Part shown: piece after piece, positions 3,179 to 57,834 of the stretch
Layout: each line of letters opens with the position of its first letter
Numbering within the stretch: position 1 is the first letter of the stretch
From: an uncultured delta proteobacterium
GTDB taxonomy: Bacteria; Desulfobacterota; Binatia; Binatales; Binataceae
Direction: 5' to 3'
NCBI GenBank assembly: GCA_963711565.1
Contig: CAVQEQ010000003.1
Span: 317,411-381,410, forward strand
Length of the DNA: 64,000 nucleotides
Notes under the pieces: model-generated
Told to the model about the DNA's origin: nothing
Database searches by the model: none
What the model saw: the letters and a program-made list of their open reading frames with translations, nothing else
Position numbers and translations under genes: made by a program

Positions 3179-3650
3179 TCAGCGCGAGGCGGACTGCGCG
3201 ACGGCCGTTGGCGGGAGCGAATATATCGGCGTGTACATCTGGTAGCACATCAGATACACGATCACGCCCGTCACTGACACGTACATCCACAGCGGCCAGG
3301 TCCATCGCGCGATTCGGCGATGGCTGCGGAATTTGCCGCGGAACGCGAGCACAATCGTCGCGATCGCGAGCGGTACGATCACGCCGGCGAGGATTACGTG
3401 CGGGATAAGAATCGAGAAGTACAGCGAGCGGACCCATCCTTCGCCGCTGAAGCGCACGTTGCCGACGTTGTAGTGATAGACGAGGTATGACGTTAGGAAG
3501 ACGGCGGAGAACCCCATCGCGGCGATCATGCAGGCGCGATGCGCCCGTACCATCCCGTTCTTGATGAAGATGAATCCCGCCAGCAGCAGGACCGTGGCGC
3601 ATCCGTTGAGGAATGCGTTCAGCGGCGCCAGCGAATGGTAAGAATCCAAT
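3179..3650 (-). CDS. DUF420-family membrane protein associated with the oxidase operon
   Basis: Four TM segments with conserved His residues. Last gene of the cox operon. A TTG start at 3650 is proposed because the ATG-extended ORF overlaps coxIV. Confidence 0.45.
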
Positions 3651-3665
3651 TGGATTCCCGGGCGT

Positions 3666-4088
3666 TCAGAGCTGCGGAATCGCCTGGTTATTCGGATTCG
3701 GCGTCTGCGGCGGCGGCGGCGCAACCGGATTCGCGCCCATCTCGGCGGGATTTGTCACCGGCCTTGGATGGTCGTAATGGGTCCACATCCGCGTCGTCAG
3801 ATCGGGCAGCAGCATGAAGCAGAGAAACGTGACCAGTATCACCGGGATTATCGCGATGATTGCGAGCGCCCTCTTTTCCATCGCGAGATGCATGAAGTAC
3901 ATCGCGACCAGCACGGCCTTCGCCCACGCCAGCGCGACCAGCAGACCGACCTTGGCGACCTGCGGCAGGCCCATCGCGTACACGCCCAGCTCGACGGCGG
4001 TCAGAATCGACAGATATATAAAAACCGCAATGTAGTTCGGCCCGCTATGTTCGATCGGATGCCCTGAAACCGCAGCTTGCGTCGTCAT
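3666..4088 (-). CDS. cytochrome c oxidase subunit IV (prokaryotic CoxD/CtaF family)
   Basis: About 140 aa, 3-4 TM helices, immediately downstream of coxC. Start taken at MTTQAAVSGHP. Confidence 0.65.
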   Translation of the reverse strand: MTTQAAVSGHPIEHSGPNYIAVFIYLSILTAVELGVYAMGLPQVAKVGLLVALAWAKAVLVAMYFMHLAMEKRALAIIAIIPVILVTFLCFMLLPDLTTRMWTHYDHPRPVTNPAEMGANPVAPPPPQTPNPNNQAIPQL

Positions 4089-6779: not shown

Positions 6780-7768
6780 GCGGTCACCTGCCGTTCGATC
6801 ACGCGCGAACTCGTGCGCGACTCGATCGCATGCGCGCGATTCGGCACGCCGAGAATATGATATGCGCGAAGCGTCAGCGTCAGGCTGGTCGCGAGGACCG
6901 CCGCGCCGACTGCAACGTGGCTCGTCGTCGGAATCACCATCCGGCCGCTCCAGATTGTGATCGCACCGAGACAAATCTGGACCACGAGCAGGATTAACAG
7001 CCCCAGTGCGGGACGGCGCAGCGCGACGACCTCGCGATGAGTCCGCAGCACGCGCGCGACCGTCCACAAAACCATTGCAGTGACGACAATCGCACCGCAT
7101 CGATGCGCAAAGTTAACCGCGATGTACTCGTTCCAGTACGGCGGAATTACGCGGCCGAACGAAAGCGGGAAATCGGGAATCACCAGCCCGGCGCTCATGT
7201 GACGCATCAGCGCGCCAACGAGAATCTGCATATAGATGATAGCGGTGGTCGCAACGGCGAGCGTCGGCAGCGAGATTCGCGAAGGTGGATCATCGACGTG
7301 CGGGGTCGAGTCCCAGCGCGGGTTCGTGAAGATGGCGATCGACACCATGAGGCAGAACAGCGCCTGCGCAGTGGCGGCGTGCGTAACCGCGATCGCCAGC
7401 GGCAATTCGAACAGCACGGTAATTCCGCCGAGGATGGCCTGCACGATGATTAGTCCGAACGCGAGCATGACAAGTCTGCGGACCCATCGCCGCGGCTCGG
7501 CGCGCCAGGCCCACGCCATCAACACGAGCGTGAGAATCACCACAGTTCCAGCAGCGAGGCGATGGCCGAATTCGAAACGGATACCGCCCTGCCAGGCCGG
7601 GATCAGTTTGCCGAACGCCAGCGGCCAGTCGGGGACGGCGAGCGCGGAACCGGTCGAAGTGACCAGGCCGCCGACGAAGATGAGGCAAAAGGTCGCGCCG
7701 GCGGTCAGCACCGCAAAGCGATGCAGTCCGCGCGCCTTCTCCACCTCAGTTGGCGACTGATTCGTCAC
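6776..7768 (-). CDS. ctaA: haem A synthase (COX15/CtaA)
   Basis: Eight-TM CtaA-like protein with conserved His pairs, sited between coxA and ctaB. Confidence 0.85.
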   Translation of the reverse strand: MTNQSPTEVEKARGLHRFAVLTAGATFCLIFVGGLVTSTGSALAVPDWPLAFGKLIPAWQGGIRFEFGHRLAAGTVVILTLVLMAWAWRAEPRRWVRRLVMLAFGLIIVQAILGGITVLFELPLAIAVTHAATAQALFCLMVSIAIFTNPRWDSTPHVDDPPSRISLPTLAVATTAIIYMQILVGALMRHMSAGLVIPDFPLSFGRVIPPYWNEYIAVNFAHRCGAIVVTAMVLWTVARVLRTHREVVALRRPALGLLILLVVQICLGAITIWSGRMVIPTTSHVAVGAAVLATSLTLTLRAYHILGVPNRAHAIESRTSSRVIERQVTA

Positions 7769-10252: not shown

Positions 10253-10593
10253 CGAAGCGTCACCTCTGCGCTATCAACGGGCAGATGCCGGACCAGCGTT
10301 CGCCGCGCCAAACAAGGCGGCTGATGCAACCTGCCAACACCTTTCGATTCATGAATTTGGTGCGATTATGCCTGTCCGCGCCAGTATTAGTGAAATGAAA
10401 AATCCTGCTTCCCCGCCGCAACCAGCGCTAAATCACCGCCGGTATGACGCTCATATTTCGCCTGCAAATTCAAGCGCTTCGCAGTCGCGGGATCGCAGGG
10501 CCGGCGCCAACGGAAATCGGACGCCGTCGCGCGATTGGCGGCAACAAAGCTTTGGGCTACAACCAGTCGAGGAAGAGGAGGTCTTGGTCCCTT

Positions 10594-12378
10594 ATGCCTG
10601 ATCGCGTGGCGACCCTTTCGCAAAACTTCGAGGCGCAGGCCCAGAAGTACGGTTCGCGCGCGTTCCTGAAGGACAAGCGCGACAAAGTCTGGACCGACCA
10701 TTCGTGGGCCGACGTTGCCGAGGCCGCCGGAAAGCTGCGCGCCGGACTGCTGGGCCTCGGCGTGCGCCCCGGCAATCGCGTCGCCATCCTGTCGGACAAT
10801 TGCCCCGAATGGATCGTCGTCGATCAGGCTGTGCTCGGGCTCGGCGCGATCGTCGTGCCGCTCTACACGACCAGCGGCGTCGAGGAAACTGCGCACGTCA
10901 TCAGCGACTCGGGCGCGAAAGTGATCGCAGCCAACGGGCCCGAGATGGTCAAGAAGATTCTTGGCCTCAGCGCCTCAATTCCCGAGGTCACCGCGATTGT
11001 CGCGATGCACAGTGGCGCGGAATCCACACCCGCCGTCAACGGGACGCCCGCCGTCGTGACGGCGGCGTCGATAAGTGGCGACGCGCCGGCGGCCATCGTC
11101 GAGGGCAGCAGCGACGACCTCGCGACACTCATCTATACGTCGGGGACGACGGGCACGTCGAAGGGCGTGATGCTCTCGCATGGCAACCTGCTGGCCAACG
11201 CCGAGGACTCGCTCGCCGCGCTCGCGCTCAACGATACCGACATGACGCTGTCGCATCTGCCGATCGCGCATTCGTTCGAACGCACGGCGGGCTACTATAC
11301 CGTCGCGATGGCGGGCGGGACGATCGCGTTCGCGGAGAGCCTGGGGCAGATCGCGTCGAACCTGACCGAGGTCGAGCCAACCGTCGTGCTGACGGTGCCG
11401 CGCCTGCTCGAAGTGATACACAGCCGCGTGATGCGCACGGTCGAGACCTCGCCGCCGATGCGGCAGCGGTTGTTCAGGATGGCTCTCACAGCGGGCGAGC
11501 AGGCTGCAGAGTATCGGAATCGCGGGAAACCGGTTCCGCCGATGCTCGCACTCTCGATGGCGTTGTTCAGGCGGCTGGTTTTCGCGCGAGTGCGCGCTAT
11601 CTTCGGCAGTCGAATCCGTTACCTGATTTCCGGCGGCGCGCCACTGCCGACTGAGATCAACCGGTTCCTCTCGGCCGCCGAAGTTCCAATCGTCGAAGGG
11701 TACGGCCTGACCGAAGCGGCTCCCGTCGTCGCGGTTAATCTGCATAACGGCAGGACCCGAATCGGCACGGTGGGACTGCCGCTGAAGCGCATCCAGGTCG
11801 AAACCGCGCCGGACGGCGAGTTGCTGCTGCGCGGGCCAAATATAATGAAGGGCTACTACAAGCTCGAAGCGGAGACGAAGGAAGCGATCGACGAAAACGG
11901 ATGGCTCCATACCGGCGACATCGCGAAGATCAACGTCGAGGGCTACATCTCGATCACCGATCGCAAAAAAGAAATCATCGTGCTGTCGGGCGGCAAGAAC
12001 GTCTCGCCCGCCTACGTCGAAGGCAAGCTCACGGCAGACAAGTTCATCAGCCAGGCCTGCGTGATCGGCGACCGCCGTAAGCATCTCGCGGCGCTGGTCG
12101 TCCCGGACTACGAAAATCTCGTCGACTTTCTGAAAGAGAAGAACCTCGATCCGAAGAACGCGGACGCGCTCACAAAATCAAAAGAGTTGAAGACGTTCGT
12201 GCAAGGGCGAATTCGCGAAATCAACAAGCAGCTCTCGGACGTCGAAGCGGTCGCCGCATTCACGATCGTCCCGCCGCTAACGCAGGAAAATGGAGAGCTG
12301 ACGCCGTCGCTCAAGGTGCGCCGCAAGATAGTGCAGGCGCATTTCAAGGATCAGATCGATTCGATGTACGGGGATTGA
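10594..12378 (+). CDS. long-chain fatty acid-CoA ligase (AMP-dependent synthetase)
   Basis: AMP-binding signature IYTSGTTGTSKG. ATG at 10594 is preceded by a GGAAGAGGAGG RBS. The ORF extension upstream is unlikely to be coding. Confidence 0.85.
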   Translation: MPDRVATLSQNFEAQAQKYGSRAFLKDKRDKVWTDHSWADVAEAAGKLRAGLLGLGVRPGNRVAILSDNCPEWIVVDQAVLGLGAIVVPLYTTSGVEETAHVISDSGAKVIAANGPEMVKKILGLSASIPEVTAIVAMHSGAESTPAVNGTPAVVTAASISGDAPAAIVEGSSDDLATLIYTSGTTGTSKGVMLSHGNLLANAEDSLAALALNDTDMTLSHLPIAHSFERTAGYYTVAMAGGTIAFAESLGQIASNLTEVEPTVVLTVPRLLEVIHSRVMRTVETSPPMRQRLFRMALTAGEQAAEYRNRGKPVPPMLALSMALFRRLVFARVRAIFGSRIRYLISGGAPLPTEINRFLSAAEVPIVEGYGLTEAAPVVAVNLHNGRTRIGTVGLPLKRIQVETAPDGELLLRGPNIMKGYYKLEAETKEAIDENGWLHTGDIAKINVEGYISITDRKKEIIVLSGGKNVSPAYVEGKLTADKFISQACVIGDRRKHLAALVVPDYENLVDFLKEKNLDPKNADALTKSKELKTFVQGRIREINKQLSDVEAVAAFTIVPPLTQENGELTPSLKVRRKIVQAHFKDQIDSMYGD

Positions 12379-12380
12379 AT

Positions 12381-12468
12381 GCGGGGCTACGCGCCCCGCG
12401 CCCGCGGCAGGGGTGACCCCTGCACCCAATGTGAAGAGCAAAGTCGCGCGCAGCGCGCTACTTTGCTC
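12381..12468 (+). repeat. REP-like element, family B (GCGGGGCT...GGCAGGGGTGACCCCTGCACCC...GCAAAGT...ACTTTGCTC)
   Basis: Begins 3 nt after the fadD stop. An inverted near-copy lies at 13399-13489 and a partial copy at 19858-19912. Confidence 0.55.
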
Positions 12469-12504
12469 CCAGGGGCGGTGGCCGGATGGTGTGCCTGACA
12501 GATC

Positions 12505-13257
12505 TCAGCGCGCGTTCTTCGCCAACCAAGCGCTTGAGCGCTTGAAGTACGCGCGGACATTCGTGGATAGATAGCGCGTCCAATCCGGCCTGCTCTCGCT
12601 GCGCTCAGCCGCGAACTTCGCCAGTGCGTATCCATAGATCTCCTGCGACAAGTAGCCGAGGCGCCGCATCGACCAACTATGCCATCCGCCACCAAGATCG
12701 TAGTGGTTGAATCGCGCCGCCGAGTTCGCACTGAATATGCCCAGTCCGAGAAATACCGTCAGCAGATCGGTCATCGGTTCATGGTCGGGCGCGCTGCGAT
12801 CGATGTGCCCATCGCCGAGAAGAATCAAATGGCCGAGTTCGTGCGCGACCGTCGCCACCAACACGATCGGATCCTTGAGCACCGAGCTCTTGAGAGCGAT
12901 AACCACTCTGCCGTCTTCTTCAATCACTGATTCATGCCCGAAGTAGATACCTGCGGGCCGATTGGTTTGTATACTCCAAAGCGAATTCTCGCGGAGTTCC
13001 TCTGCCTCGTCCGGAAAGATTTCCAGCTTGATGCGAGTCCGATCGATCTGCCTGTATCCGCAGATTCGATCAACCAGCGCTTCCAATGAGGCTTTACTTC
13101 TGTCGAACGCGTCGGGGAAATGCTCGGCGTCGGGCAGGACGACTCTTGCTTCGAGCAGGCGCTTACGACCGAGCATCGCTTCCAGGCGGACGAAGCCCTC
13201 GTCGACCCACAAACGCTCTTCCTGGTTAACAGGAAGTTTCGGAGAGAAGCCCAGCAT
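12505..13257 (-). CDS. hypothetical HExxH-motif protein (putative zinc metallopeptidase-like)
   Basis: 250-aa ORF carrying HELGHLIL. Bracketed by inverted family-B repeats. Confidence 0.55.
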   Translation of the reverse strand: MLGFSPKLPVNQEERLWVDEGFVRLEAMLGRKRLLEARVVLPDAEHFPDAFDRSKASLEALVDRICGYRQIDRTRIKLEIFPDEAEELRENSLWSIQTNRPAGIYFGHESVIEEDGRVVIALKSSVLKDPIVLVATVAHELGHLILLGDGHIDRSAPDHEPMTDLLTVFLGLGIFSANSAARFNHYDLGGGWHSWSMRRLGYLSQEIYGYALAKFAAERSESRPDWTRYLSTNVRAYFKRSSAWLAKNAR

Positions 13258-13335
13258 TGGTAACCGGACAGACTACCGATTCCGGTTACCTACTGCGACT
13301 CGTTCTCTGTCGCCGGCATCCTGCTCGATTCGAGG

Positions 13336-13376
13336 AACCTAACCCCTAACCCCTTCCCGAGCGGGAAGGGGAACCC
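13336..13376. repeat. REP-like hairpin, family A variant (GGAACCTAACCCCTAACCCC-TTCCCGAGCGGGAAGGGG)
   Basis: Shares the 5' module with the copy at 32110-32147. Confidence 0.5.
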
Positions 13377-13398
13377 GATTTTATGATTTATGTGACCG

Positions 13399-13489
13399 AG
13401 AGCAAAGTAGTGCGCTTCGCGCAACTTTGCGATTTGATACCGGGTGCAGGGGTCACCCCTGCCGAGGGTGCGGGGCGAGGAGCCCCGCG
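13399..13489 (-). repeat. REP-like element, family B, inverted copy
   Basis: Its reverse complement aligns closely with 12381-12468. It abuts the greA stop codon. Confidence 0.55.
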
Positions 13490-13491
13490 TT

Positions 13492-13986
13492 TCATTTGGT
13501 GCCGTTCTCGGCGGCCATCAGTACGTGAATCGTCGTCAGCTTCTTGACCATGTAGGCGCGCTTGCCCTTGGGCGTGACGACTTCGATATCGTCCTCCGCT
13601 GCCTTGCCGATTAGCGCGCGGCCCAGCGGCGACGACAGCGAGATGCGGTTCTGCGCGCCGTCGACTTCCTCCGGCACGACGATTTCGAACTCCGCGATAC
13701 CGCCCTCGTCGAGATCCTCGAGCTTGACGCGGCTGCCGAGGCCGACGGTGTCGCGCGGGATCGTCTCGAGATCGATCATCGTGAGCTCCGCGATTCGCGT
13801 CTCGAGGTTGCCGACCCGCGCGCGCAGGAACTCCTGGCGCTGCTTGGCCATCGCGTACTCCGCGTTCTCCGACAGGTCGCCGTGAGCTCGCGCGCGCTCG
13901 AGTTCCTTGGGCAGATCCACGGTGAGTTCGCGCTTGAGCGTCTCGAGGTCTTTCTTGAGCCGCTTGATTACCGGTAATTCAGCCAT
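13492..13986 (-). CDS. greA: transcription elongation factor GreA
   Basis: Canonical GreA N-terminal coiled-coil and C-terminal FKBP-like domain. Confidence 0.95.
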   Translation of the reverse strand: MAELPVIKRLKKDLETLKRELTVDLPKELERARAHGDLSENAEYAMAKQRQEFLRARVGNLETRIAELTMIDLETIPRDTVGLGSRVKLEDLDEGGIAEFEIVVPEEVDGAQNRISLSSPLGRALIGKAAEDDIEVVTPKGKRAYMVKKLTTIHVLMAAENGTK

Positions 13987-18851: not shown

Positions 18852-18970
18852 GATTGAATCCTCGACGCTCTCTTCTATCTCTCTACAATCAGAGGTACCA
18901 ACAGCATTAGCCGATGTCAACTTTGGCGGGGTGACGGATGCGTCCGGCTAATCGCACGGCTGCCAGGTCC

Positions 18971-19005
18971 GACCTCTTCCCCTCGCCTTGAAAGGAGAGA
19001 GGATC
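18971..19005. repeat. REP-like hairpin, family A variant
   Basis: gacctcttcccctcgccttgaaaggagagaggatc. Confidence 0.4.
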
Positions 19006-19353
19006 GAAGGTGCGGGTCCTTTATTCAGCTCGCGATTGGTCCGCGCGATGCAGGATTCCGGCTACCTAGAAGCTGAGCTAACGGCAAACCGCCGATCGCC
19101 ATCGAAACGAAGCCCTGGTAGTTTGCAGTCTGAGAGAGTCGCTAACAAAACGTCACACCCCCCAACCTCTTCGCGAATCATGGATCACGAACCCAAAACG
19201 CAGAACGATCACAACGCGTATATTCCAGGCGCGCGTTTCTCCCATGCGCGACGCGCTTGGCGGGTTCGCTCGCGCGGCGAGTTCCCATCGAGGGCGCCGG
19301 TGGGGCGTTCCTGACTAAGCCCCTCACAAACACGTAGGAGGAACTGGGCGGCG

Positions 19354-19803
19354 ATGTATAGGCGGATTCCCTACCTAGAAAAGTTCTCTGACTCAACTCT
19401 TCTCGGACTATTACTCTTTACGTTCGGGGCGACCGTCGTGTTCTTCACTTATGAGATCGGTTCACCATGGTTTCAATTGTTCGTCGTTACACTCTTCGCG
19501 GCCGAGGAGGCTTTTCTCTTCAGTCCCGCTTCTCTTTCCATGCGTGAGTCCGTACACCGTTGGTTTCTCGCTGACCCTGCAATGAGACCAACACAACCGT
19601 GGGATGTCACTCACCCGTGGTTAGTGAAAGGCATCGCCATCCTCGTATTGCTAGCAGAGGTAGCCCTCTTCGCCGTCTACCAGCTTCCGATGAGCATCTT
19701 CGCAGGTTCACTCTCCTTGGTTTTTCTCCTTTCTGTGAGCGAAGAATTCTTCCGACGGCTCTCTGCTACAGCGTTTCCCGTCAGCAAAACTTGGACAGAT
19801 TGA
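19354..19803 (+). CDS. hypothetical membrane protein (in the low-GC island)
   Basis: Four hydrophobic segments. Local GC is clearly lower than the surrounding sequence. Confidence 0.5.
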   Translation: MYRRIPYLEKFSDSTLLGLLLFTFGATVVFFTYEIGSPWFQLFVVTLFAAEEAFLFSPASLSMRESVHRWFLADPAMRPTQPWDVTHPWLVKGIAILVLLAEVALFAVYQLPMSIFAGSLSLVFLLSVSEEFFRRLSATAFPVSKTWTD

Positions 19804-19857
19804 GCCGTGCAGATGTTCCCGCAATTAGACAAGTGACGTAGGAGTGCCGCGCCGCGC

Positions 19858-19912
19858 TACGGCAGGATAGCCCGTTCCGCGGGGCAGCGGTGACCCCTGC
19901 ACCCAGTGACTT
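19858..19912 (+). repeat. REP-like element, family B partial copy
   Basis: Contains CGGGGCAGCGGTGACCCCTGCACCC. Confidence 0.45.
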
Positions 19913-20172
19913 TTGCGGGTACACGCAGAGCCGCGCGCGAACACAGACGCACTCAGGACATTCGGTTACGATTCGGGATGGCGCCGGATAACTGACATCG
20001 CGCGCAACGGACGATCGGCTGCAGAATCTCTTGCACAGGGAAGTTGGCCGGCCTATACGGGACCTGGAATCGGCGAGTCAAGACAGAAATCCCGGGTAAA
20101 ACTGAATAAAGTAGTAGCGTTGTTGGTTCTCGGGGGTTTGGATGGGACTGCGGGATAATCCGGCTGAGTGAC

Positions 20173-21177
20173 GTGGGAGCTGGAACACATGCTGCGTTGC
20201 CGATGCGCAAGGTTCCGATCGATGTGATGCGTGCGGTGAGCATGCTCTACATCGTCGGATTTTGGCATTTGCTCGATTATACGAAAGGTGTCGGATGGCA
20301 TTATAACCCGGTCACCTATCGCCTCACGGTTGGAGCACTTTCCCTTTTCGTCCTGATCTCCGGTTTTCTGACAGGGCGCAAGGACGGTGGTCTGGCGCGA
20401 GGCGAAATCTGGAGATTCTATGAGACGCGGTTCTGGCGCATCTATCTCCCCTTCGTGATCGCCTCCGGCCTATTCCTGGCGGCAGGAATGAGCGATGCCA
20501 TTCCGCTGGTCAAGGGCGTCACACTCGTCGCCATGCTGCTGGCGCCGCCGCCGTTCACATTGTGGTTCGTAAACATGATCGTACTCTTCTATCTGATCGC
20601 CCCGCTGCTCATCCGCATGCGTGGGAACGTGGTGGCTTACATCGGCATATGCCTCGCGATCGTTGGAGCCATGAGTGTGTATCAATCGGAGATGGGGAGG
20701 ATAGATATGCGCCTTATCCTCTATTTCCCTTGCTTCGCTGCCGGTATATTTCTGGCCGCCGAAACGTTGCCGTCATCGGCGCTAAGTCTCATCGGCCTCC
20801 CACTTCTCGCCGCTCTGTCTCTTTTGCCTACGCTGACACGTGAGTCCGGCAGGCTGGAGAATGACCTATGGGCGGCGCCTTGGGCACTTTTCGCTTCTAT
20901 CGCAGTCTTTGTTGTCGTTATGCGCGCTGGTCGGAATCTAAAACCGCGCGCGATTCTCACACAGCTCAGCGAGGCGAGCTTTTTCATGTACCTTCTGCAT
21001 CGTCCCCTCTATCGTTGGATGCAGAGCGTTTGGTTTCCGATTACAGAGAAAGCGCAGGTTCCTTATCTGTTGTTCGTGTGTCTGCCGACTATCGCGATCG
21101 TGGCGTGGTTTTGCCAGAGAGCCTACACAGGTTTGTTGGAGCGGCGTGAGGTTCGAGTCGCTGCGCCTACTGGTTAG
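20173..21177 (+). CDS. acyltransferase family 3 (membrane O-acyltransferase)
   Basis: Ten-TM acyltransferase-3 architecture. The start may be at 20203 (MRKVPID). Confidence 0.75.
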   Translation: MGAGTHAALPMRKVPIDVMRAVSMLYIVGFWHLLDYTKGVGWHYNPVTYRLTVGALSLFVLISGFLTGRKDGGLARGEIWRFYETRFWRIYLPFVIASGLFLAAGMSDAIPLVKGVTLVAMLLAPPPFTLWFVNMIVLFYLIAPLLIRMRGNVVAYIGICLAIVGAMSVYQSEMGRIDMRLILYFPCFAAGIFLAAETLPSSALSLIGLPLLAALSLLPTLTRESGRLENDLWAAPWALFASIAVFVVVMRAGRNLKPRAILTQLSEASFFMYLLHRPLYRWMQSVWFPITEKAQVPYLLFVCLPTIAIVAWFCQRAYTGLLERREVRVAAPTG

Positions 21178-32084: not shown

Positions 32085-32109
32085 ACGTTCGAGCCGGGAT
32101 TTCGCGGAA

Positions 32110-32210
32110 CCTAACCCCTAACCCTTTGCCTCGAGGGAAGGGGGACCGGAGGGCGGGTGCGGAATCTTTAGACCTCTCCCCTAACCCCTCTCCCTTCTGG
32201 AGAGGGGAAC
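32110..32210. repeat. two tandem REP-like family-A hairpins between convergent genes
   Basis: cctaacccctaaccctttgcctcgagggaaggggg followed by gacctctcccctaacccctctcccttctggagaggggaac. Confidence 0.55.
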
Positions 32211-32244
32211 AAAGGACGCGTTCTGCGCGACCGCTTACCTAATT

Positions 32245-39905: not shown

Positions 39906-39947
39906 CGTTTGAGAAAAAGACGGGGCCGGATTGCTCCAGCCCCGCAC

Positions 39948-39986
39948 CTCACCCCTAGCCCCTCTCCCTTCAGCAGAGGGGAATTG
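39948..39986. repeat. REP-like hairpin, family A
   Basis: cacccctagcccctctcccttcagcagaggggaa. Confidence 0.5.
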
Positions 39987-40005
39987 GAACCAAGGTTGAC
40001 CGCGA

Positions 40006-46039: not shown

Positions 46040-49000
46040 TCATTGCTTCGGCTCCTTGCCGCTGCCCTCGAGCTTGACGCTCTTGTCGTCACCCACCTCG
46101 AGGTTGGTGTCTATTGTGAGCGTGCCGCTGTACTTCATCGCGGCGGTCGGCGCGAATTCCACCGAGACTTCGCAACTGCCAGGGGCCACGCCTTTGGATT
46201 TCGGGCCGAGGTCATCGTCGTTGCATTCCTGGGTCAGCGTGAACGGACTCCCGACGCCGGATTCCATCTCGATCAGAATCGGCAGCGGGACCTTTTTCTT
46301 TTTTACCTTGCCCGCGTTGGTGATCTTTAGCGTCTTGATCTTATTCGAGCCCACCTCAACGGCGCCAAAATTCAGTCTCTTGGGCGAAATCTTTAGCTTG
46401 CCGGGGACCGGAGTCGGTGTTGCGGTTGGGGTCGCAGTGGCGGTTGCAGTTGCCGTTGCTGTCGCAGTAGCCGTAGCGGTTGGGGTCGCGGAAATCGTGA
46501 GCACGTCGAAACCGGTCGAGGCGTTCGACGCGAGCAACTCGCCAGTACCAGCGAAGGTCGCAGTCAGAGTCTCGAAACCAGCACCGCTCGCCGTTACCTG
46601 ACAGGACGCGATGCCTTGCGCGTTGGTCGGCGCATTGCAGTTTTGCCCGCCGACGGAGAAGTCGATGGTCTCGCCCGAGAGCGCTGTCGCTGGACTCTGC
46701 GAGACGTTGGTCAACGATCCGATGAGGGTGACTGTTTGTCCAGGAACGGCACCCTCAGGACTCTGGTTGAGGCTGACGAAGGTAGTGTCGGAACCAGGGC
46801 CCCAGGTCACAACGGCTTGATTGGAAGTAAGCGGCGTACTGCTGACGGTGGTGGACGCCGTTATGGTATCGACGCCCTGATGCGCGGCGACGTAACTGAA
46901 CGACGCCTGCCCGCTTGCGTTCGCGATCACCTGCTGGACCTGCGGGTTGGCGCCGGTGACTGTGAACTGGATCTGTGTTCCCGCTGGAGGAGTCGTGTAG
47001 TGGATGCTCGCATTGAAGGTCTGGGACGTCCCCTGTGCCGGATTCGGCGACACCGAAGTCGGCGATAGTACAATCTCCGGAGACGTGAGAGCGCTCGCAT
47101 AAGTGCAGTCGCCGGCGGTGTCCGTGATCCTGAAGACGGTGGGCCCCTGCGAGGCGTAGATGCATCCGTCGGTGCCGATGGTCAGGAAGTTGGCGCCCGC
47201 TTTCGTGGCCAGCGGGGTCGCCAATGTCGGTGGAGTGGTCGTCAGGTCAACCTCGTTAATGCCAACGACAGCATCGTTCACGAATGGCGTCCCAATCAGA
47301 GAACGTCCCCGCACCGGTCCCGCCTGCCAGTAATCCCAGATTGGCGAGCTGTAGGCCAGAAAGAGTGGTAACGGTCGGCGTCGTCGGACCATTGGTACCG
47401 CTTATTTCGGCGACGTTGACCTCTGAGCCGTTGAAGGTCCACGCGTAAATCGTTCCTCCCGGAGCGAAGGCCAAGGTCGCATTGGGACCCGGCGACAATG
47501 TGGTGTACACAGAGGTGGAGGGCGACGCACCGCCTGGATCGGAGACGCGCCAGACCGAGGTGTTTGCGTAACTCTCGGTGCATGTGTCGTCGGTAAATAG
47601 ATCTCCGCTGAGCGGATCGATCGAAATTGTCGTGGGACAAACCTCAGTGGAAGAAATCGTTCTTGTCACCGTGCCATTGGAGGGATTGAGCTGGAGTATA
47701 GAGCCGGTCGTGGAACTCGCAGAGCTCACATCCAGGCTGGCAAACAAATTACCGCTCGAATCGAAGACCAGGCCCGACAGCGTCTGGCCGAGCGAAGTGC
47801 TGTTGAGCTTCGTGCTGGGGCCTGCCGCGCCGCCGCCGGGCGGGAACTTGTAGATATTCCCGGTGGTGAACTCGTTGACGTAGAGATTCCCCGAGCTGTC
47901 GAAGGCGATCCCGGTTGCTCCCTCGCAGTCGAAATTGACGCCAGTGCCGCCGCCGGTAGTGAGGCTCTGGACTGTAAAACCCGTCGCGTAGGGCGTGATG
48001 ACGAATCCCGGCGCAGCGACCGGAGCGGGGCTGGCGCAGGCGTTGCTCGGGTCGCCGCTGAACGTCACGACAGCAGAGCCTGGAACCGGCAAGCTGCCGT
48101 CGGTAACGTCCACCGCCGTGTAGGTAACCGCCTCGCTGGCGATATCGGTCGCGTTGAACTCGATAGTGCCTTCAGCGCCGGTCACCTGCGGGCTCGGGCC
48201 AGTGACCACCGAGCTGCCGGTTTGCGATATGTTGACCAGCTTGCCCGGCGTCGGCCGCCCCAGCGAATCCTTGAGCGTGACCGTGATGGTGGAGGCCGAG
48301 GTGCCGTCGTTAGCAACGCTGGTGAGATTCGGGACGATGCTCGCACTAACGGCGGGTGGAGTTGCGAAGGTGACGCCTGGCGTAGTGCTGGGTGTCAGTG
48401 TGACGCCGTCCGTCGTGTCTTCCGCGGTGAAGGTAGTTGCCTCGGCAACCAGGTCGGTCACCGTAAAGATTACTGCTCCGTTATCGACCGTCGAAGGACC
48501 GCTGGCCGCGCTGATTTGCGCACTGCTGCCTGAGTCCGCGGTTAGAGTCACCGTCTTGCCGCTCACGATATTACCGTCGCTATCGAGCAGCCTAACCACC
48601 ACGTATGAGGGCGTTGCACCGTCGGCGGGGATAGTTGATGGCGGTGTGGCTCCGCTCAGCGGCGAAGGGATCCCCACACCAACCGAAACCTCAGAGATGG
48701 TGGCGTCAACGGGACCAGCGGTGTCCCCGAGCAACTTGAGATGAAGAGCGTCAACATTTGGTGATCCAAGTCCGACGTGAGCAAAGTCACTGCCCATCGA
48801 TGCTGCGTCGTGAAAAGCCGTGGAGCTGGCGAACGGATAGATTAGCGGGTTCAGGAAGCCCAGGTTTGTCCCCTGAGATTGGTTCAGGAGCGCAGCGTAA
48901 ACAGCCCACGTTGGCGTCGAACTGCTCGTTCCGCTGTACAAGCCACCGGTCGGACAGCCGCCCGCGCTGGCCTCGCAGATAACCACGCCCTCCTCTGGAT

Positions 49001-50495
49001 CGGCGTTAGCTACAACATCCGGTACCGAGCGCTGTGCGGTACCGCTCAACGTCGTTTGGTAGCTTTTGGCGGAGAAGAACTTGCTCACTCCGAAACCACC
49101 TTGGCCGGTGGGCGGAGTGTCCGTAGTTCCATCCCACCAGGTCTCTGAGCCGTAAGTCGCTCCCGGTCCTAATGCGAGCGAGGATCCGCCGACCGCGGTC
49201 GCATTCGGCGAATCCGCAGGCACCGAAACCGTATTGGCTGCTCCGTCGAGACAGGTGCTCCCGCTGTCCCCGCTTCCGTTGAAGATTGAGATTCCGCCGG
49301 CAGCGGCATTCTGAAAGATCAAGTCGATGCTCTGGACGTCGGCTAGAGTGGTTTCGTCCTCGCAATAGGCCCAACTGTTGCTGATGATCGTGGAACCGCC
49401 ACTGATTGCGGCATTGAAGAGCGATTGAAAGCTGGCGCCGGACCCTGTGAAAGGTTGGTCATACACCACGACCTTTGCGCCGGGGGCGCCGGACATTACG
49501 TCGTCGATATCGAGTAGTACTTCGTCCTGGTTGGGACCCGGCGATGCGCCGCCATTTACTTTGACTTCGGACAGATTGGTTATCTGCGTAGCCGGCGACC
49601 CGACCAAGTTGAGAAAGTCGGCCACATCGCTCTGCTGGAAGGTGTCAAATTCGATCAGGCCGATGGTTTGTCCGGTGCCATCCACTCCGAGAAATGACGG
49701 TGCCGGCGGATCCAATCCGAAGGGCGCTTTGCCGGTCGGAACAATATATTTCTTCTGCGCCGCGTAGCAGGTCTTATATGCATTTTGTATTGCTTCGGTC
49801 CCGTGGTTCACGATCGGGATTTGAAGCAGGGCGCAAACAATACTAGCGCCAATCAACCTGATCGCGACAACGTCGGAATGGGGCGTAGCTAAATTCGACA
49901 GACCTGCAATCGCTTCCAGGTGCAGAGCCAGGTCAGCCGGCACAGCCGGATCGCGATCATTCGCAAAGAAGATCCGCTTGCCAATCCTATAACTGCTGAT
50001 TCGCAGATCGAACGCGTTTTGCGCCTGCCCGCGCGTTCCGCGCACCGAGAGCGTCAATCGATTTTTCGAGCCGCCGGTGACCTCGAATCCGTTTTTCCTG
50101 AGATACGCTGCCAGCTGCCGATATTCGGAGCGTGAAGGACCGAAACGATCTGCGATTTGGTTCTGTGAAAGAAAGTGATGAAAATTCTTCGAATGCGGAT
50201 CATAGATCTCGTGGAGGTAACGTTCGAATCCGGCCTGGTCGTCATGCTTGAGAACGATCGTCAGCGTTATCGGCGCATTCTCATTTTTGGGATTCGACGA
50301 CGGAACCAGGGTCGCCTTGGTCAGCGCCGGCAACACATGACCGGGCAAGCGAACCATCGCCGGCGCGGCGTCGGCTTGTTCGGTACTTGCTTTAGCTGTC
50401 GATGATCTCGCCGCTAAAACCACCGCCAAAAGCGGAACCAACAGCCATAGGCGGCGTCGAGACAACTGAGCCGGACTTCCCATTTTGATCCCCAT
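46040..50495 (-). CDS. giant secreted sedolisin (S53) peptidase with Big_1, NHL-like propeller and choice-of-anchor-D domains; frameshifted near 47300
   Basis: Pro-kumamolisin activation domain, catalytic SGTSSSTP, two Big_1 domains and a propeller. The Thr-Ala linker and the C-terminal module read in a second frame. The ORF fragments are 47256-50495 and 46040-47392. Confidence 0.7.
46411..46490. repeat. imperfect trinucleotide/hexanucleotide (GCN)n repeat encoding a (Thr-Ala)n-Pro linker
   Basis: A counterpart of different length lies at 50991-51066. Confidence 0.6.
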
Positions 50496-50622: not shown

Positions 50623-53600
50623 TCATTGCTTCGGCTCCTTGCCGCTGCCCTCGAGCTTGACGCTCTTGTCGTCACCCACCTCGAGGTTGGTGTCTATTGT
50701 GAGCGTGCCGCTGTACTTCATCGCGGCGGTCGGGGCGAATTCCACTGAGACTTCGCAACTGCCAGGGGCCACGCCTTTGGATTTCGGGCCGAGGTCATCG
50801 TCGTTGCATTCCTGGGTCAGCGTGAACGGACTCCCGACGCCGGATTCCATCTCGATCAGAATCGGCAGCGGGACCTTTTTCTTCTTTACCTTGCCCGCAT
50901 TGGTGATCTTGACCGTCTTGATCTTGTTGGAGCCCACCTCAACGGCGCCGAAATTCAGTCTCTTGGGCGAAATCTTTAGCTTGCCGGGGACCGGAGTCGG
51001 TGTTGCGGTTGGAGTCGCAGTGGCGGTCGCGGTTGCAGTTGCAGTGGCGGTGGCGGTTGGAGTCGGCGGAGTTAGTCCCACGACCGTGAATGGCCTGGAG
51101 TCGCTCGACGGATTGTATTGCGAGGTTCCAGGGAAGTTCGCGGCAAGTCTCATGAGTCCAGTGCCCGATGGCGTGATCTGACACGAGGCGTTGCCGTTGC
51201 TGTCGGTTGTGGCGCCGCATCCCGCGCCGCCGATGGTGAAGTTCACAGTTTCACCCGCAAGCGCGACTTGAGGAATCGCCGATTGATCCGTCAGGTTCGC
51301 CGTCACGGTGACAAGTTGGCTCGCGGCCGCGCTGGACGGGCTCGCGTTGAGAGTAAGGAAGGTCACATCCGATCCGGGTCCCCAGGTGATGACGGCCTGA
51401 TTCGAGACGAGCGACGAACTGGCCACGGTCGCCGAGGCTGAAATGGTATCCACTCCCTGATGGGTCGCGGTGTAGGTGAACGATGCCGCGCCGCCTACGC
51501 TGTTGGCCTCGACAAACTGCGGGTTCGCCCCGGTCACACCCAGCAAGACCGGCGTTCCATCGGTGACGGTGACATTGTGGAAGCGTGCCGTGAACGTCTG
51601 CGCGCTGCCCTGCGGCGGGTTGGGCGAGACGGTCGTAGGCGTCAGAACGAGCGATGGTGCCGAGAGGCTGGCCACAAAGCCGCAAGTGCCGTCGGGATTG
51701 CTGATCCTCAATACTTCGTTACCATTGGCAATATAGAGGCATCCGTCGGGACCGAAAGTCGCGTTCTCTGCCGCGGGGACGATGCCGCTATTCACCAGGA
51801 TAGAGCCGGTGCTGGGAGGGTTGGTGGTGAGATCAAGCGTGGCGACCGCGTCGCTGAGCGTGCCGATTGCGGTGCCGAAGATAAGGAACTGCGCTCCGCC
51901 GCCTTTTGCGGTTCCCGATGCGGCCAGAAATTCTGCCGCCGGCATCGGGCCGGAGAGCACGTTGACGGGAGCCGGTTGAGTGCCGGCGGTGCCGCCCACC
52001 TCGACGATTTGGCCGTCGCCGGCATTGCCGAACACGTAGATGGTCCCATCGGCCGCGAAGGTAATCTGGTAGTTGCCCTGATTGGGCAGGGTCGCGTAGG
52101 TGGAAACTGTGGGAGTGGTCGCAAGATTGGAGATACGCAGCAGCGCGCCGCTACCGTTGGGACCCTCGCAACCATCATCGACGAAGAGATCGCCACTGAG
52201 AGGATCGACCGCCATCTCGAGCGGGCAATTGAGATTCCCGGCAACGGTGTTGAGAACGGCGCCGGTGCTCGGATCGATTTGAAGCACGGCGCCGGTGCCC
52301 AGATTGCTGCCAGTCGAGCCGCGGACCGCGTAGAGGTTGCCGCCGTCGAATACCAGTTGGCCGAGGAGGGGACCGATGGTGCCAATCAGATTGCTCGCGC
52401 TCGCGGCGCCGCCGCCTGATGGAATCTTGTAAATGGCGCCGTTGAACTCCTCGCCTACATACAGATTGCCCGAAGCGTCGAACGCGAGGCCCCACGCCCC
52501 GGGGCATCCGCCAAAGTCTCCGCCTGCGTATGAGAAGTTTTCCGAAAACAATCCGGTGACATACGGAGTGACGAGGTACCCCGGTGCCGACATGGTATTT
52601 CCGTTTCCGCATCCCGTTTCGGGCCCGCTGCTGAAGGTCACCTGGGTGGTTTCGGGGAAGGCAAGATTGCCGTCGGTCACATCGGTCGCCGTGTAAGTGA
52701 CGGTCTCATCGTCAGTGTCATATCCTGTGAACACGATTTGGCCCGCGGAGTCGGTGACCTGCGGAATGGGCCCAGTGATGACAGAGTTGCCGGTCTGATT
52801 GAGCTGGATCTGCTTGCCCGGCGATGGACGCCCGAGTGTGTCCTCGAGCGTCACGGTAATAGTGGTGGGATGTGCGCCGTCAGCAGTGACGGTCGTCGGG
52901 AACGCAGTCAGCCCGGCCGACGTTGCGGGCGGCGGAACGAATGAGAGTGTAGGTTGCTGCGCCAAGATTACGCTGTCGGTCACATCCGTAGCAGTAAGAG
53001 TAAGATTTTCAGTGTTGAGATCGGTGATGGAAAAGACCGCGGCGCCGTCATTATCTGTCACGGCGAAGGGAGGGGTAATCGTGGCACTGCCGGCGGCTGC
53101 TGTTAGCGATACACTCTTACCACTGATTGGAAACCCGTTGGTGTCCGTAAGGACCGCCTGCGACAGCGCGGTGGTGACGCCGTCGGCGGGGGCAGAACCG
53201 TCCGCGTTGGCCCCTGCCGCGAATGCAACCGAGAGACTCGGGCTGGCCGCGCCTGGGGATAAGCCGGTTAGAGCCAGCCGCAACTGCAGAAAATCGGGCG
53301 ATCCCAAGCCGACGTGCGCGAAGTCGGAACCCAACGATGCCGCGGAGTGGAACGCATTGGTATTTGCCAGCGGATATAAATGCAAGTTGGCGTTGCCGAG
53401 GTTGGAGCCCAGCATCGCGTTCAGGGCGGCCGCGTAGGCCGCCCATTCCGGCGCCGCCATACTGGTCCCGCCAAAGCGACGCCCGCTCAGACAACCGCCC
53501 AAATCCGCCTGGCAAATCTGAAGGCCCTGCGCCGGGTCAGCATCAATCACCACGTCCGGTATCGAGCGCATCGTGGAGCCGCTCAATCCGCTTTGGTAAG

Positions 53601-55470: not shown

Positions 55471-57834
55471 TCATGGTCCGATCCCCGTCATGCTGATGTT
55501 ATGCGGGCTGTCGGGATCGCTGCCGACGCTCACCGCGATGCTCGCGCTCTCCGGCGATCCGCCGCCAGTCGGCATAAACGTCACCGCGATCGTGCAACTC
55601 GAGTTCGCCGCCACCATCGAGCCGCAGGTACCGCCGTTCAGAGCGAAATCGCTTGCGTTGGAGCCGGTGATGCTCGCACTCACAGACAACGAAGACCCCG
55701 ACAGGTTGGTGACTGTCACGTCCTTGGTCTTCGACGAAGTCCGCGCCGTCAGCGTGCCGAACGCGAGCGTAGCCGCCGGTGTGACCGTTGCCGGGATCGT
55801 CGAGCCAGTGGTGAATCCAACCGTGTACGAATCAAGCGGGTCGGGAGAGTCGGTAACCGTCATTGACGTCGCTTCCGTGCCCAGCGCGGTCGGTGCGTAG
55901 GTAACAATCAGTGTGCAAGTCGACTTGGCCCCGAGGGTCGAAGTGCAGGTGCCGCCCGTGACGCCGAAGTCACCGGCGTTCAGGCCGCTGAAGGTCGGCG
56001 GGAGCGTCAGCGAAACCGCGTTGGTCTGATAATTGTGCACCGTGATCGTCTTGGTCTTGCTGGAGCCAATCTTCACGCTGCCGAAGGCGAAGCTGGCGGG
56101 CGTAACGGCCATAGTGATCGTGCCGGTGCCGGTGAGCGTCACATGCTGCGGGCTGGTGGCGGTGTTGTCTTCGACCGAAAGAGATGCGCTGCGCGCGCCA
56201 AGCGCGTTGGGCCTGAAGCCGATCGCGATGGTGCAGCTGGTCAGCGGCGCGATTCCGCCCGCTAGGCAGGTAGTGGTACCGGTGGAGGCGAATTCAGGGT
56301 CAGACGAGGTCACATGAACGAACAGCGGGTTGGTGTGGCCGGTGTTCCTGACGGTGAGGTTCTTCACGATCTTGTCGCCAACCGGCGAGTTGCCGAGTGC
56401 CAGCGAGGCAGCCACCGAAATCGTGGTCGGAGCGTTGGCGATCTCATACACGGTGCCATTGGCGACAACACCGAAAGAGCCGCCGTCCAGAGTCGTGCCG
56501 TAGAGATTGCCGATCGGATCGATGAGCAGGCTCGCCCAGGGCAGAGAGCCGTCGGTGGTGGCGGGGTTGCCAAAGTTCCAGAGGATTGTCTCGCCCCAGC
56601 TTCCCCCGCCCATCGTAGGCGGAGTCAGCTTGTACGCCGTGCCCCCTACATAAGGTTCATCGCTATAGAGCCCGCCGTATTCGGTGGTGCCGTAGACATT
56701 GCCGTTCGGATCGATCACCACGCCGCCCACCGGGGAAAAGCCGTCCGTGCCGTTGTCCTGAAAATTCCAGAGAACTTGCTCGGTCCACGAACCCCCGCCG
56801 CTGCCCGGAGGTGACAGCTCGAACGCCGTCCCGACTCCGCTTACGCCGGTTGCAAAATCCGCGGAAGTCCCGCCTAACGCGGTCGTGCCGTAGATATTGC
56901 CCAGCCTATCCATTATCAGGCCGGACACCGGTTGGGCGCCGTCATCGACGCTGCTGGGGCCGTAGGTGTCGCCAAAGTTCCAGAGGACCGAATAGCCACC
57001 GCCCGAAGTGATCTCGAACAACACTCCGCCCGGGTCAGAACTGCCATAGTTGCTCCCGCCGCCCGAAGTCGTGCCGAAGAGATCGCCGCTGCCATCTCCA
57101 ATCACGCCGGCATAGGGAAGAAAGCCGTTAAGGCCGGGATTGCCGGCGCCACCTTCAGCGAATTGCATCAGGATTTTCTCGGTCCACCCCGGACCGCTTG
57201 AGGGCGGTGATAGCTCGTACACCGTCCCATCGAAGCCCGGGCCGTCAAACGTCTGACCTTCGAGCGTCGTGCCGAACAGATTGCCGTTCTTATCCATGAT
57301 CAGGCCGGAAGTGGGCTCATAGCCGTCGGTGACGGCGGGGTTGCCAAAGCTCCAGAGAATCGTCTCGGTCCAAGGTCCCCCACTTATGATGGGCGGTGAC
57401 AGCTCCCACGCGGCGCCAAGATTGTAAGCGCCTCCAGCCTGAGTCGTCCCGTACAGGTTGCCGTGCGAATCCATCACCAGGCCGGATCCCCAGGTCCAGG
57501 GGAGATAGCCGTCGGTGCCGTTGTTGTTGAAGTTCCAGAGGATTGTCTGCGTCCACATTCCGCCGCCGGTCGTCGGCGGTGACAGCTCGTACACGACGCC
57601 CTCGCTGTGAGTCCCGCCGTTGGGAGCCGTGCCGTAGAAATTACCCTGCCCATCCTCGATCAGGCTGGAATGGGGGTAAGACCCGGTCGCTCCTGTGCCG
57701 CCTGAGTTGAAGTTGAAAAGCACGCTCTCGCTAGGACTTGGGCCGGAGTCGCTGTGAGCGCTTAAGCTCACCATCGCTAGCGTAAGGAGAAGGCCGAGAA
57801 TGATCAGCGGGAATGTCGGTTTTGAAAATCGCAA
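55471..57834 (-). CDS. secreted tandem-repeat (Gloeo_Verruco/GloVer-like) protein with three C-terminal choice-of-anchor-D-like domains
   Basis: At least 10 repeats of ~45 aa (G.LYGTT..GG....G.VYELSPP...W.E.ILW.F), then three ~110-aa Ig-like domains. Confidence 0.75.
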   Translation of the reverse strand: MRFSKPTFPLIILGLLLTLAMVSLSAHSDSGPSPSESVLFNFNSGGTGATGSYPHSSLIEDGQGNFYGTAPNGGTHSEGVVYELSPPTTGGGMWTQTILWNFNNNGTDGYLPWTWGSGLVMDSHGNLYGTTQAGGAYNLGAAWELSPPIISGGPWTETILWSFGNPAVTDGYEPTSGLIMDKNGNLFGTTLEGQTFDGPGFDGTVYELSPPSSGPGWTEKILMQFAEGGAGNPGLNGFLPYAGVIGDGSGDLFGTTSGGGSNYGSSDPGGVLFEITSGGGYSVLWNFGDTYGPSSVDDGAQPVSGLIMDRLGNIYGTTALGGTSADFATGVSGVGTAFELSPPGSGGGSWTEQVLWNFQDNGTDGFSPVGGVVIDPNGNVYGTTEYGGLYSDEPYVGGTAYKLTPPTMGGGSWGETILWNFGNPATTDGSLPWASLLIDPIGNLYGTTLDGGSFGVVANGTVYEIANAPTTISVAASLALGNSPVGDKIVKNLTVRNTGHTNPLFVHVTSSDPEFASTGTTTCLAGGIAPLTSCTIAIGFRPNALGARSASLSVEDNTATSPQHVTLTGTGTITMAVTPASFAFGSVKIGSSKTKTITVHNYQTNAVSLTLPPTFSGLNAGDFGVTGGTCTSTLGAKSTCTLIVTYAPTALGTEATSMTVTDSPDPLDSYTVGFTTGSTIPATVTPAATLAFGTLTARTSSKTKDVTVTNLSGSSLSVSASITGSNASDFALNGGTCGSMVAANSSCTIAVTFMPTGGGSPESASIAVSVGSDPDSPHNISMTGIGP

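Follow-up and report, generated by a model that had tools for sequence, protein, structure and literature searches.

The closest described counterparts of the repeats reported here are the repetitive extragenic palindromic (REP) sequences of Enterobacteria and the bacterial interspersed mosaic elements (BIMEs) built from them, the REPIN populations of Pseudomonas and Stenotrophomonas with their REP-associated tyrosine transposases (RAYTs; PMC3116915, PMC3337134), and the miniature inverted-repeat transposable elements (MITEs) that are found in 3' untranslated regions (3' UTRs), such as the Correia/NEMIS elements of Neisseria. We analyzed a stretch of 64,000 nucleotides (hereafter "the window") from an uncultured delta proteobacterium of the Binataceae (contig CAVQEQ010000003.1, positions 317,411 to 381,410), in which a hairpin repeat of about 90 nt, here called element B, stands twice in inverted orientation between the convergent genes fadD and greA and encloses a gene for a 250-amino acid protein with an HExxH motif. 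A preliminary description of this DNA had offered two readings, namely a small mobile cassette with terminal inverted repeats or a pair of REP-type terminators that happen to flank an inserted gene. The evidence presented below makes it likely that the two repeats represent distinct copies, each passed on vertically, of a REP/BIME-like modular hairpin repeat of Candidatus Binatus/Binataceae intergenic DNA, which probably serve as 3'-UTR hairpins, and that the enclosed gene is a resident of the locus and not cargo.

Like REP sequences and BIMEs, element B is a short, GC-rich, imperfect palindrome in high copy number that is nearly always extragenic and often found at 3' ends or between convergent genes, and it is likewise a mosaic that joins a conserved palindrome to alternative neighboring modules. 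Its many extragenic copies show a compensating stem beside a conserved, nonpalindromic tail, and this invariant tail (ACCC in element B, GTAG/CTAC in Escherichia coli) matches in layout, not in sequence. The copies in the window also lie within the 15 nt of a stop codon in which REPs act in E. coli, where those less than 16 nt from a stop codon are stated to reduce translation in the part of PMC12306157 that cites Liang, Rudd and Deutscher (2015). However, element B is unrelated to REPs in sequence and resides in the uncultured phylum Binatota; it is a composite of 55–120 nt made of two or three different hairpins instead of repeats of a single REP, and the AT-rich leader of one of its forms (variant b, see below) has no REP counterpart.

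The comparison with REPIN-RAYT systems is similarly mixed. Element B populates a genome with nearly identical hairpins, it includes close inverted doublets (in the Binataceae loci L040, L041, L070, L115, and L124 as well as in locus L078 of Polymorphobacter), and its presence varies between relatives, as seen from an extra copy in locus L003. In contrast to REPINs, most copies are singletons, and the pair in the window is spread over 1 kb with a gene in between; furthermore, stable inheritance and differences specific to each site speak against a recent transposition of the greA and fadD copies. With the Neisseria MITEs, element B shares that it is dispersed, about 100 nt long, and endowed with internal inverted repeats, and that it adjoins gene ends where it is likely cotranscribed with the upstream gene, but it has neither terminal inverted repeats of its own nor a detectable target-site duplication and is asymmetric in its order of left hairpin, core, and right hairpin. 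What is new in element B is its sequence, its three-hairpin composite structure, and its host phylum.

Element B at the greA-fadD locus

The inverted repeats had been placed correctly to within 1 nt and occupy positions 12381-12468 and 13400-13488, where a repeat finder recovered them as two pairs of arms with 90% complementarity each (12378-12427/13442-13491, 50 nt; 12438-12468/13400-13430, 31 nt). Copy 1, on the plus strand, begins with a left hairpin of variant a at 12381-12399 (GCGGGGC-TACGC-GCCCCGC), 2 nt past the fadD stop codon (TGA, 12376-12378). A linker of 6 nt, read from the sequence, leads to the invariant 22-nt core GGCAGGGGTGACCCCTGCACCC at 12406-12427, which comprises the hairpin GCAGGGG-TGA-CCCCTGC followed by ACCC, and the right hairpin (module i, 12436-12468, GAGCAAAGT-CGCGCGCAGCGCGC-TACTTTGCTC, also written GAGCAAAGT...ACTTTGCTC) is located where fadD and the HExxH gene converge. 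Copy 2, on the minus strand, starts 3 nt past the greA stop codon (minus-strand TGA, 13494-13492) with a variant-a left hairpin at 13470-13488 (GCGGGGC-TCCTC-GCCCCGC), continues with an exact match to the core at 13442-13463, and ends with a right hairpin, again module i, at 13400-13430. Both copies are hence found directly behind a stop codon, as the preliminary description had it, and both stand in sense orientation relative to the gene that they follow, so that they are inverted to each other because fadD and greA point toward each other. The distance between them is 931-1014 nt, of which the HExxH gene takes up 753 nt.

Each copy folds into 3 hairpins, with sense-strand energies of -59.9 and -47.8 kcal/mol for the two copies and z-scores of -3.7 and -4.6 against shuffled sequences, and the number of cores expected by chance was 0 (100 dinucleotide-preserving shuffles). 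GC-rich hairpins right after stop codons are also what ordinary, gene-specific intrinsic terminators would offer, but that two of these should have become alike by convergence is scarcely credible: the copies share an identical 22-mer with similar flanking hairpins that does not arise by chance and yet was found in 153 exact copies, and there is no U-tract at either of them.

We compared 8 syntenic loci, of which 6 contain the HExxH gene while L070 and L022 lack it. Five of them (L001, L003, L004, L085, and L127) share the order of a 3-hydroxyacyl-CoA dehydrogenase gene, an AsnC-like gene, greA, the HExxH gene, the converging fadD, and cox genes, with one copy of element B after greA and another after fadD in every case. 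Overall, the greA-side copy is present at all 8 loci and the fadD-side copy at 7, at a divergence of the flanking genes of 7–16%. In the alignment of the fadD-side spacer, the left hairpin and the core are near-identical in these seven loci, and the DNA just past the core is unalignable. The linkers are specific to each site and kept across genomes (GCGCCCGC on the fadD side, GCACCCTC on the greA side), and together with this conservation they indicate that the fadD and greA copies are old, vertically inherited, and not homogenized with each other.

The two loci without the HExxH gene are the kind of relatives, with greA and fadD adjacent, that the preliminary description had suggested looking for. 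L070 keeps both copies of element B about 190 nt apart, and L022 keeps the greA-side copy, a hairpin of a second repeat family (family A, see below), and around 40 nt of the region upstream of the HExxH gene, with a different hairpin after fadD. A homologue of the HExxH gene with 82% amino acid identity was moreover found on a plasmid-like contig (L128, 1-6248) between MqsR/MqsA and TrbL genes and in the neighborhood of genes for ParA, RPA, and a RepB primase. No copy of element B is found there, and homology to the chromosomal loci begins at the ATG, which means that the bare HExxH gene has moved between replicons.

These loci bear directly on the proposal that the two inverted copies are terminal inverted repeats of a small, nonautonomous element that carried the HExxH gene in. 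This proposal draws on the inversion and 90% complementarity of the arms, on the adjacency of greA and fadD in two relatives without the gene, and on the plasmid-like contig, by which the gene moved at least once. Nevertheless, we consider it most improbable. The repeats are kept at the orthologous 3' ends of fadD and greA and abut the stop codon of their own core gene across eight syntenic genomes; a cassette bounded by repeats could not leave an empty site with both "terminal repeats" in place, as seen in L070, and L022 retains one of them together with part of the HExxH upstream region. Repeats and supposed cargo do not travel together, since L070 has the repeats without the gene and the plasmid-like contig has the gene, from its ATG on, without the repeats. 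There is also no direct repeat around the pair: no target-site duplication was detected in the window, where the outer flanks (GATTGAAT ahead of the first copy and GTTTCATT behind the second) share only the inverted TGAA of the stop-codon regions. Finally, the enclosed gene is not a transposase gene, its divergence is proportional to that of the flanks, and more than 100 unrelated sites carry the core.

A different course of events would be that the HExxH gene is not ancestral but entered a junction between two copies of element B that acts as a hot spot of recombination or insertion, with L070 and L022 representing the original empty state. The slot is indeed very plastic, with 1-3 copies of family A, the extra copy of element B in L003, and a toxin-antitoxin pair in L127 (BrnT with the CopG-type antitoxin BrnA, inserted between greA and the HExxH gene at 3284-3731), which would have entered in the same way. 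In addition, the pair in L070 resembles close inverted pairs at other convergent genes (L040, L041, L042, L090, L115, and L124), and the eight loci give an almost star-like tree. We nonetheless regard such an insertion as unlikely. L070 is closest to the HExxH-bearing L003 in both flanking alignments (distances 0.079-0.081), the ~40 nt in L022 match the HExxH upstream region of occupied loci as would be left by a deletion, and the nucleotide divergence of the HExxH gene (0.125-0.22) scales with that of the flanks across all six occupied loci. Given this parallel divergence and the grouping of L070 with L003, loss in L070 and L022 is the simpler history. These alignments indicate that the HExxH gene already occupied its slot in the common ancestor of the relatives sampled here, that it was lost in 2 of the 8 loci, and that it does not move with element B.

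An allelic replacement of the HExxH gene in L004 was considered as well, because its product shares only 68% protein identity with that of the window at flanks that are the closest to those of the window, and was rejected since the nucleotide divergence of the gene is the lowest of all (12.5%). Frameshift noise in the assembly offers the best explanation for the low protein identity. In the ENA contigs of L003 and L004 (ERZ25039544 and ERZ25039465), gene calling broke fadD, greA, and the cox genes into several pieces, and the HExxH identity is much lower for the protein than for the nucleotide sequence. This pattern fits uncorrected frameshift errors, so that protein-level identities from both assemblies are unreliable.

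A modular family of dispersed hairpins

To map the core beyond this locus, we scanned for the exact 22-mer in one genome per species and retrieved matches as 8-kb blocks, of which at least 118 were obtained. Nearly all of them belong to metagenome-assembled genomes (MAGs) of Candidatus Binatus/Binataceae, many labelled "uncultured delta proteobacterium". Among viral contigs, only 4 hits to the core were obtained. The copy census comprised these blocks and the syntenic loci, 1.04 Mb of Binataceae DNA in all, and counted 153 exact cores with 142 of them outside called genes; a single MAG (CAWCDG01) accounts for at least 12 copies among the matches listed. The suggestion of a genome-wide, REP-type family is thus borne out.

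The core stays invariant between interchangeable hairpins on either side. On its left, 25 copies carry variant a as in the window, 95 carry variant b, 12 carry variant c, and 21 have other sequences; variant b is formed by GTGAAACCC-N5-GGGTTTCAC with an AT-rich leader (CACTTTATTGAATG). On its right, there are at least 3 hairpin modules, or none. Among 104 copies of variant b, 98.8% of the cells are paired as opposed to 33–53% in slid registers, and 42 cells show double changes compared with 6.2 in shuffles. Near-matches of the core show the compensatory stems GGGC/GCCC, GGCC/GGCC, and GGGT/ACCC within an unchanged frame (GGCAGG...CCTGCACC), and the fadD-side left hairpin of L127 has the compensatory form GTGGGGC/GCCCCAC. 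Judging from these patterns of substitution, the stems of element B are under structural selection. A small open reading frame (ORF) or conserved peptide in the variant-b leader was discarded as an explanation because stops occur in no consistent frame and the changes in the stem are compensatory.

Known RNA families do not account for element B: no Rfam match reached its gathering score anywhere in the window, and searches of 12300-13600 and of one variant-b copy gave only chance-level matches (E 0.45-6.9) far under the gathering scores. Neither a tRNA nor a tmRNA was found in the window.

Most copies are single, and close inverted doublets at distances of 100-200 nt were seen in L040, L041, L042, L070, L090, L115, and L124. 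Some copies outside the window that carry right module iii end in T-runs. One such unit of about 140 nt, consisting of an extra element B (variant a) and module iii with a T-run, lies directly past the HExxH stop codon in L003 (6640-6780) and has no counterpart in the corresponding spacers of the other five occupied loci (the window, L001, L004, L085, and L127), a difference which suggests that the family can still duplicate or move.

The core 22-mer was also found in Polymorphobacter, a genus of Alphaproteobacteria (L012, L036, L063, L074, L078, and L083). The copies of Polymorphobacter have a different left arm (GCCTCCGGCG) together with the compensatory stems GGCC/GGCC and GGGC/GCCC, and they form tight inverted, REPIN-like doublets as in L078 at 7141-7191.

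A third, partial copy of element B had been reported for 19858-19912 of the window. This holds for the 22-nt core at 19883-19904 on the plus strand (GGCAGCGG...), which is degenerate with 1 stem-breaking mismatch, and nothing recognizable was found beyond it: the flanking modules are absent, and the sequence shows no excess folding energy (z +0.56). The gene that was said to precede it corresponds to the ORF 19354-19803, which has a weak coding signal and no Pfam match; its product would be hydrophobic, its codon bias is weak, and it has no similarity to the 144-amino acid product of the gene that takes the corresponding place in L001. The surrounding region (18921-21177) includes a 1.25-kb stretch without any confident gene and with lower GC content (56.7%) that holds the degenerate core, and the GC content at third codon positions is low as well in the neighboring Acyl_transf_3 gene (20173-21177). 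This region may have been acquired.

Position, proposed role, and spread of element B

The position of element B relative to genes depends on the variant. Variant a was found at 15 independent sites, 12 of which have an upstream gene on the same strand with the core starting 20-45 nt past its stop codon, and at about half of these 12 sites the left hairpin begins 2-6 nt past the stop. Across all variants, intergenic regions with element B lie between convergent genes in 30% of cases compared to a background of 18% (chi-square p = 0.003). The family overall resembles insertions that are tolerated between genes and found preferentially at gene ends, while variant a is tightly tied to stop codons.

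Based on this arrangement, we propose that element B would be transcribed as the 3' UTR of fadD and greA, where hairpins closed by GC pairs only would act as barriers to 3'-exonucleases and/or contribute to transcription termination. The left hairpin starts inside the ~15 nt covered by a terminating ribosome and may in this way lower the output of the upstream gene, that is, greA or fadD, and the fadD-side copy could serve both converging genes. The label of "REP-type terminators" given to the two repeats earlier is apt for the REP-type family but not for a canonical intrinsic terminator, since both copies lack a U-tract.

Several observations weigh against the interpretation of the window copies as vertically inherited, REP-like 3'-UTR hairpins. 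Stems are present, but no T-run follows any hairpin of the window copies on the sense strand, and a terminator scan flagged only the weak inner stem of the right hairpin on the minus strand (12457-12445); a scan for canonical promoters found none. For the source genome itself, the count covers the window, with 2 intact copies and 1 remnant in 64 kb. In codirectional intergenic regions, 38 copies of all variants are in sense and 26 in antisense orientation, and divergent genes flank 21 of the 110 intergenic regions that contain element B, so that a strictly RNA-level role in 3' UTRs cannot hold for the whole family. Folding energies of the sense and antisense strands showed no consistent asymmetry either. 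Genes in the fetched loci were called by a codon-usage model and not taken from standard annotation. No RAYT was detected by tblastn in the 1.04 Mb, a search made with a single approximate E. coli RayT probe and covering <1% of the genomes concerned, and without a RAYT-like gene the REP label is one of architecture.

Part of these observations would also fit a role on the DNA level, in which the core is bound or cleaved by a protein such as gyrase, a nucleoid protein, or an HUH enzyme of the RAYT type, and in which the position behind genes reflects tolerated insertion with no effect on the expression of fadD or greA. The invariant ACCC tail next to a compensating stem recalls the head-plus-palindrome layout of REPs, the orientation bias of the whole family is weak and its folding lacks strand asymmetry, and the core is also found in another phylum, in the REPIN-like doublets of Polymorphobacter. 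On the other hand, no candidate enzyme was found in the sampled loci, variant a favors the sense strand (12 of 15 independent sites) and lies within a few nucleotides of stop codons, and the greA and fadD copies are far better conserved at orthologous sites than the surrounding spacer. We therefore see a purely DNA-level function as possible but doubtful, and a DNA-level role would in any case be compatible with an effect on the RNA level.

As to how element B came to be dispersed, a hairpin-recognizing enzyme is the likely agent, although ORFs next to clustered copies are not transposase-like (a PDZ-like secreted protein in L066, housekeeping genes at the Polymorphobacter loci). A more far-reaching and tentative idea is that element B is an active population of enzyme-mobilized hairpins whose core is recognized by an HUH/RAYT-like or other structure-specific recombinase, that it is common to Binatota and Polymorphobacter by horizontal transfer, and that the greA and fadD copies were co-opted as regulators of translation termination and of mRNA 3' ends. 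For the two copies in the window, inheritance in place as REP-like hairpins of the 3' UTR is what we favor.

The HExxH gene, neighboring features, and significance

The HExxH gene (12505-13257, minus strand) encodes 250 amino acids with the motif HELGH, as described before, but it is no orphan: its product has 611 homologues at E <= 1e-3, many of them 56–90% identical and all unnamed or hypothetical. The residues H139-E-L-G-H143 and D158-H159-E160 are invariant in 30 homologues, so that at the level of motifs the protein has both the HExxH signature and the downstream third metal ligand of zincins, and no Pfam or NCBIfam model was reached. It is thus a predicted zinc metallopeptidase of an uncharacterized conserved family with a putative minigluzincin-like fold. 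It shares the HExxH helix and the conserved downstream H-E pair with minigluzincins, M48/M56 peptidases, and SprT-like zincins but differs from them by extra helical parts at its N and C termini.

On the same strand, a palindrome read from the sequence (GGTAACCGG-N14-CCGGTTACC, 13259-13290) ends 1 nt before the ATG of the HExxH gene. It is kept in L004 and partly in L085 and L001, comes with no obvious Shine-Dalgarno sequence, and may serve as an operator or, folded into a hairpin, mask the start codon. Between this region and copy 2 of element B lies a hairpin of family A (13329-13378, minus strand, CCCCTTCCC-N4-GGGAAGGGG plus TTAGGGGTTAGG). Family A is a second, separate dispersed repeat of the form CCGGTTCCCCTTCCC-N4-GGGAAGGGGTTAGGGGTTAGG with a subtype CCCCTCTCCC/GGAGAGGGG, and it has 5 copies in the window, the others being located at 1797-1853, 32101-32157, 32164-32220, and 39946-39994. 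It occupies the same position in L001, L004, L022, and L127, is present as 3 tandem copies in L003 (5675-5795), and often adjoins element B in other Binataceae loci.

The two convergent genes are readily classified. The fadD-like gene for a long-chain acyl-CoA ligase (10444-12378, plus strand) matches Pfam AMP-binding (4.7e-75) and AMP-binding_C_3, and its match to the NCBIfam model FadD11-like (6e-104) is under the cut-off; its true start is probably at 10591 because orthologues have 594-595 amino acids. The transcription elongation factor gene greA (13492-13986, minus strand) matches Pfam GreA_GreB_N and GreA_GreB as well as NCBIfam GreA (1e-38 to 1e-40).

Elsewhere in the window, two minus-strand genes whose products are large secreted proteins containing Ig-like domains (Big_1, Big_3_5, Cep192_D4-like) have a 3'-terminal stretch of 300 nt in common that is 98% identical (46040-46339 and 50623-50922). 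Each stretch is followed by a GT-rich coding repeat with a period of 12 nt (46397-46498 and 50992-51075), and a gene with a pro-kumamolisin domain (47256-50495) lies between the two. A third gene (55471-57834) contains seven repeats of about 190 nt.

For the biology of these organisms, the greA-fadD slot presents itself as a small hot spot of gain and loss, with a peptidase gene, a toxin-antitoxin pair, and extra repeats. Since a search of the available literature gave no paper that joins Binatota and repetitive extragenic palindromic sequences, this would be the first description of a REP-like family in a phylum that is uncultured and abundant in soil. The family shows an unusual degree of modularity, and the core is also present in a distant phylum; a REP-like core common to two phyla is unusual. 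When these genomes are annotated, inverted copies of element B on both sides of one gene should not be taken for transposon ends. Candidates for REP-mediated control of translation termination outside E. coli are those copies that directly follow stop codons and are kept in eight genomes.

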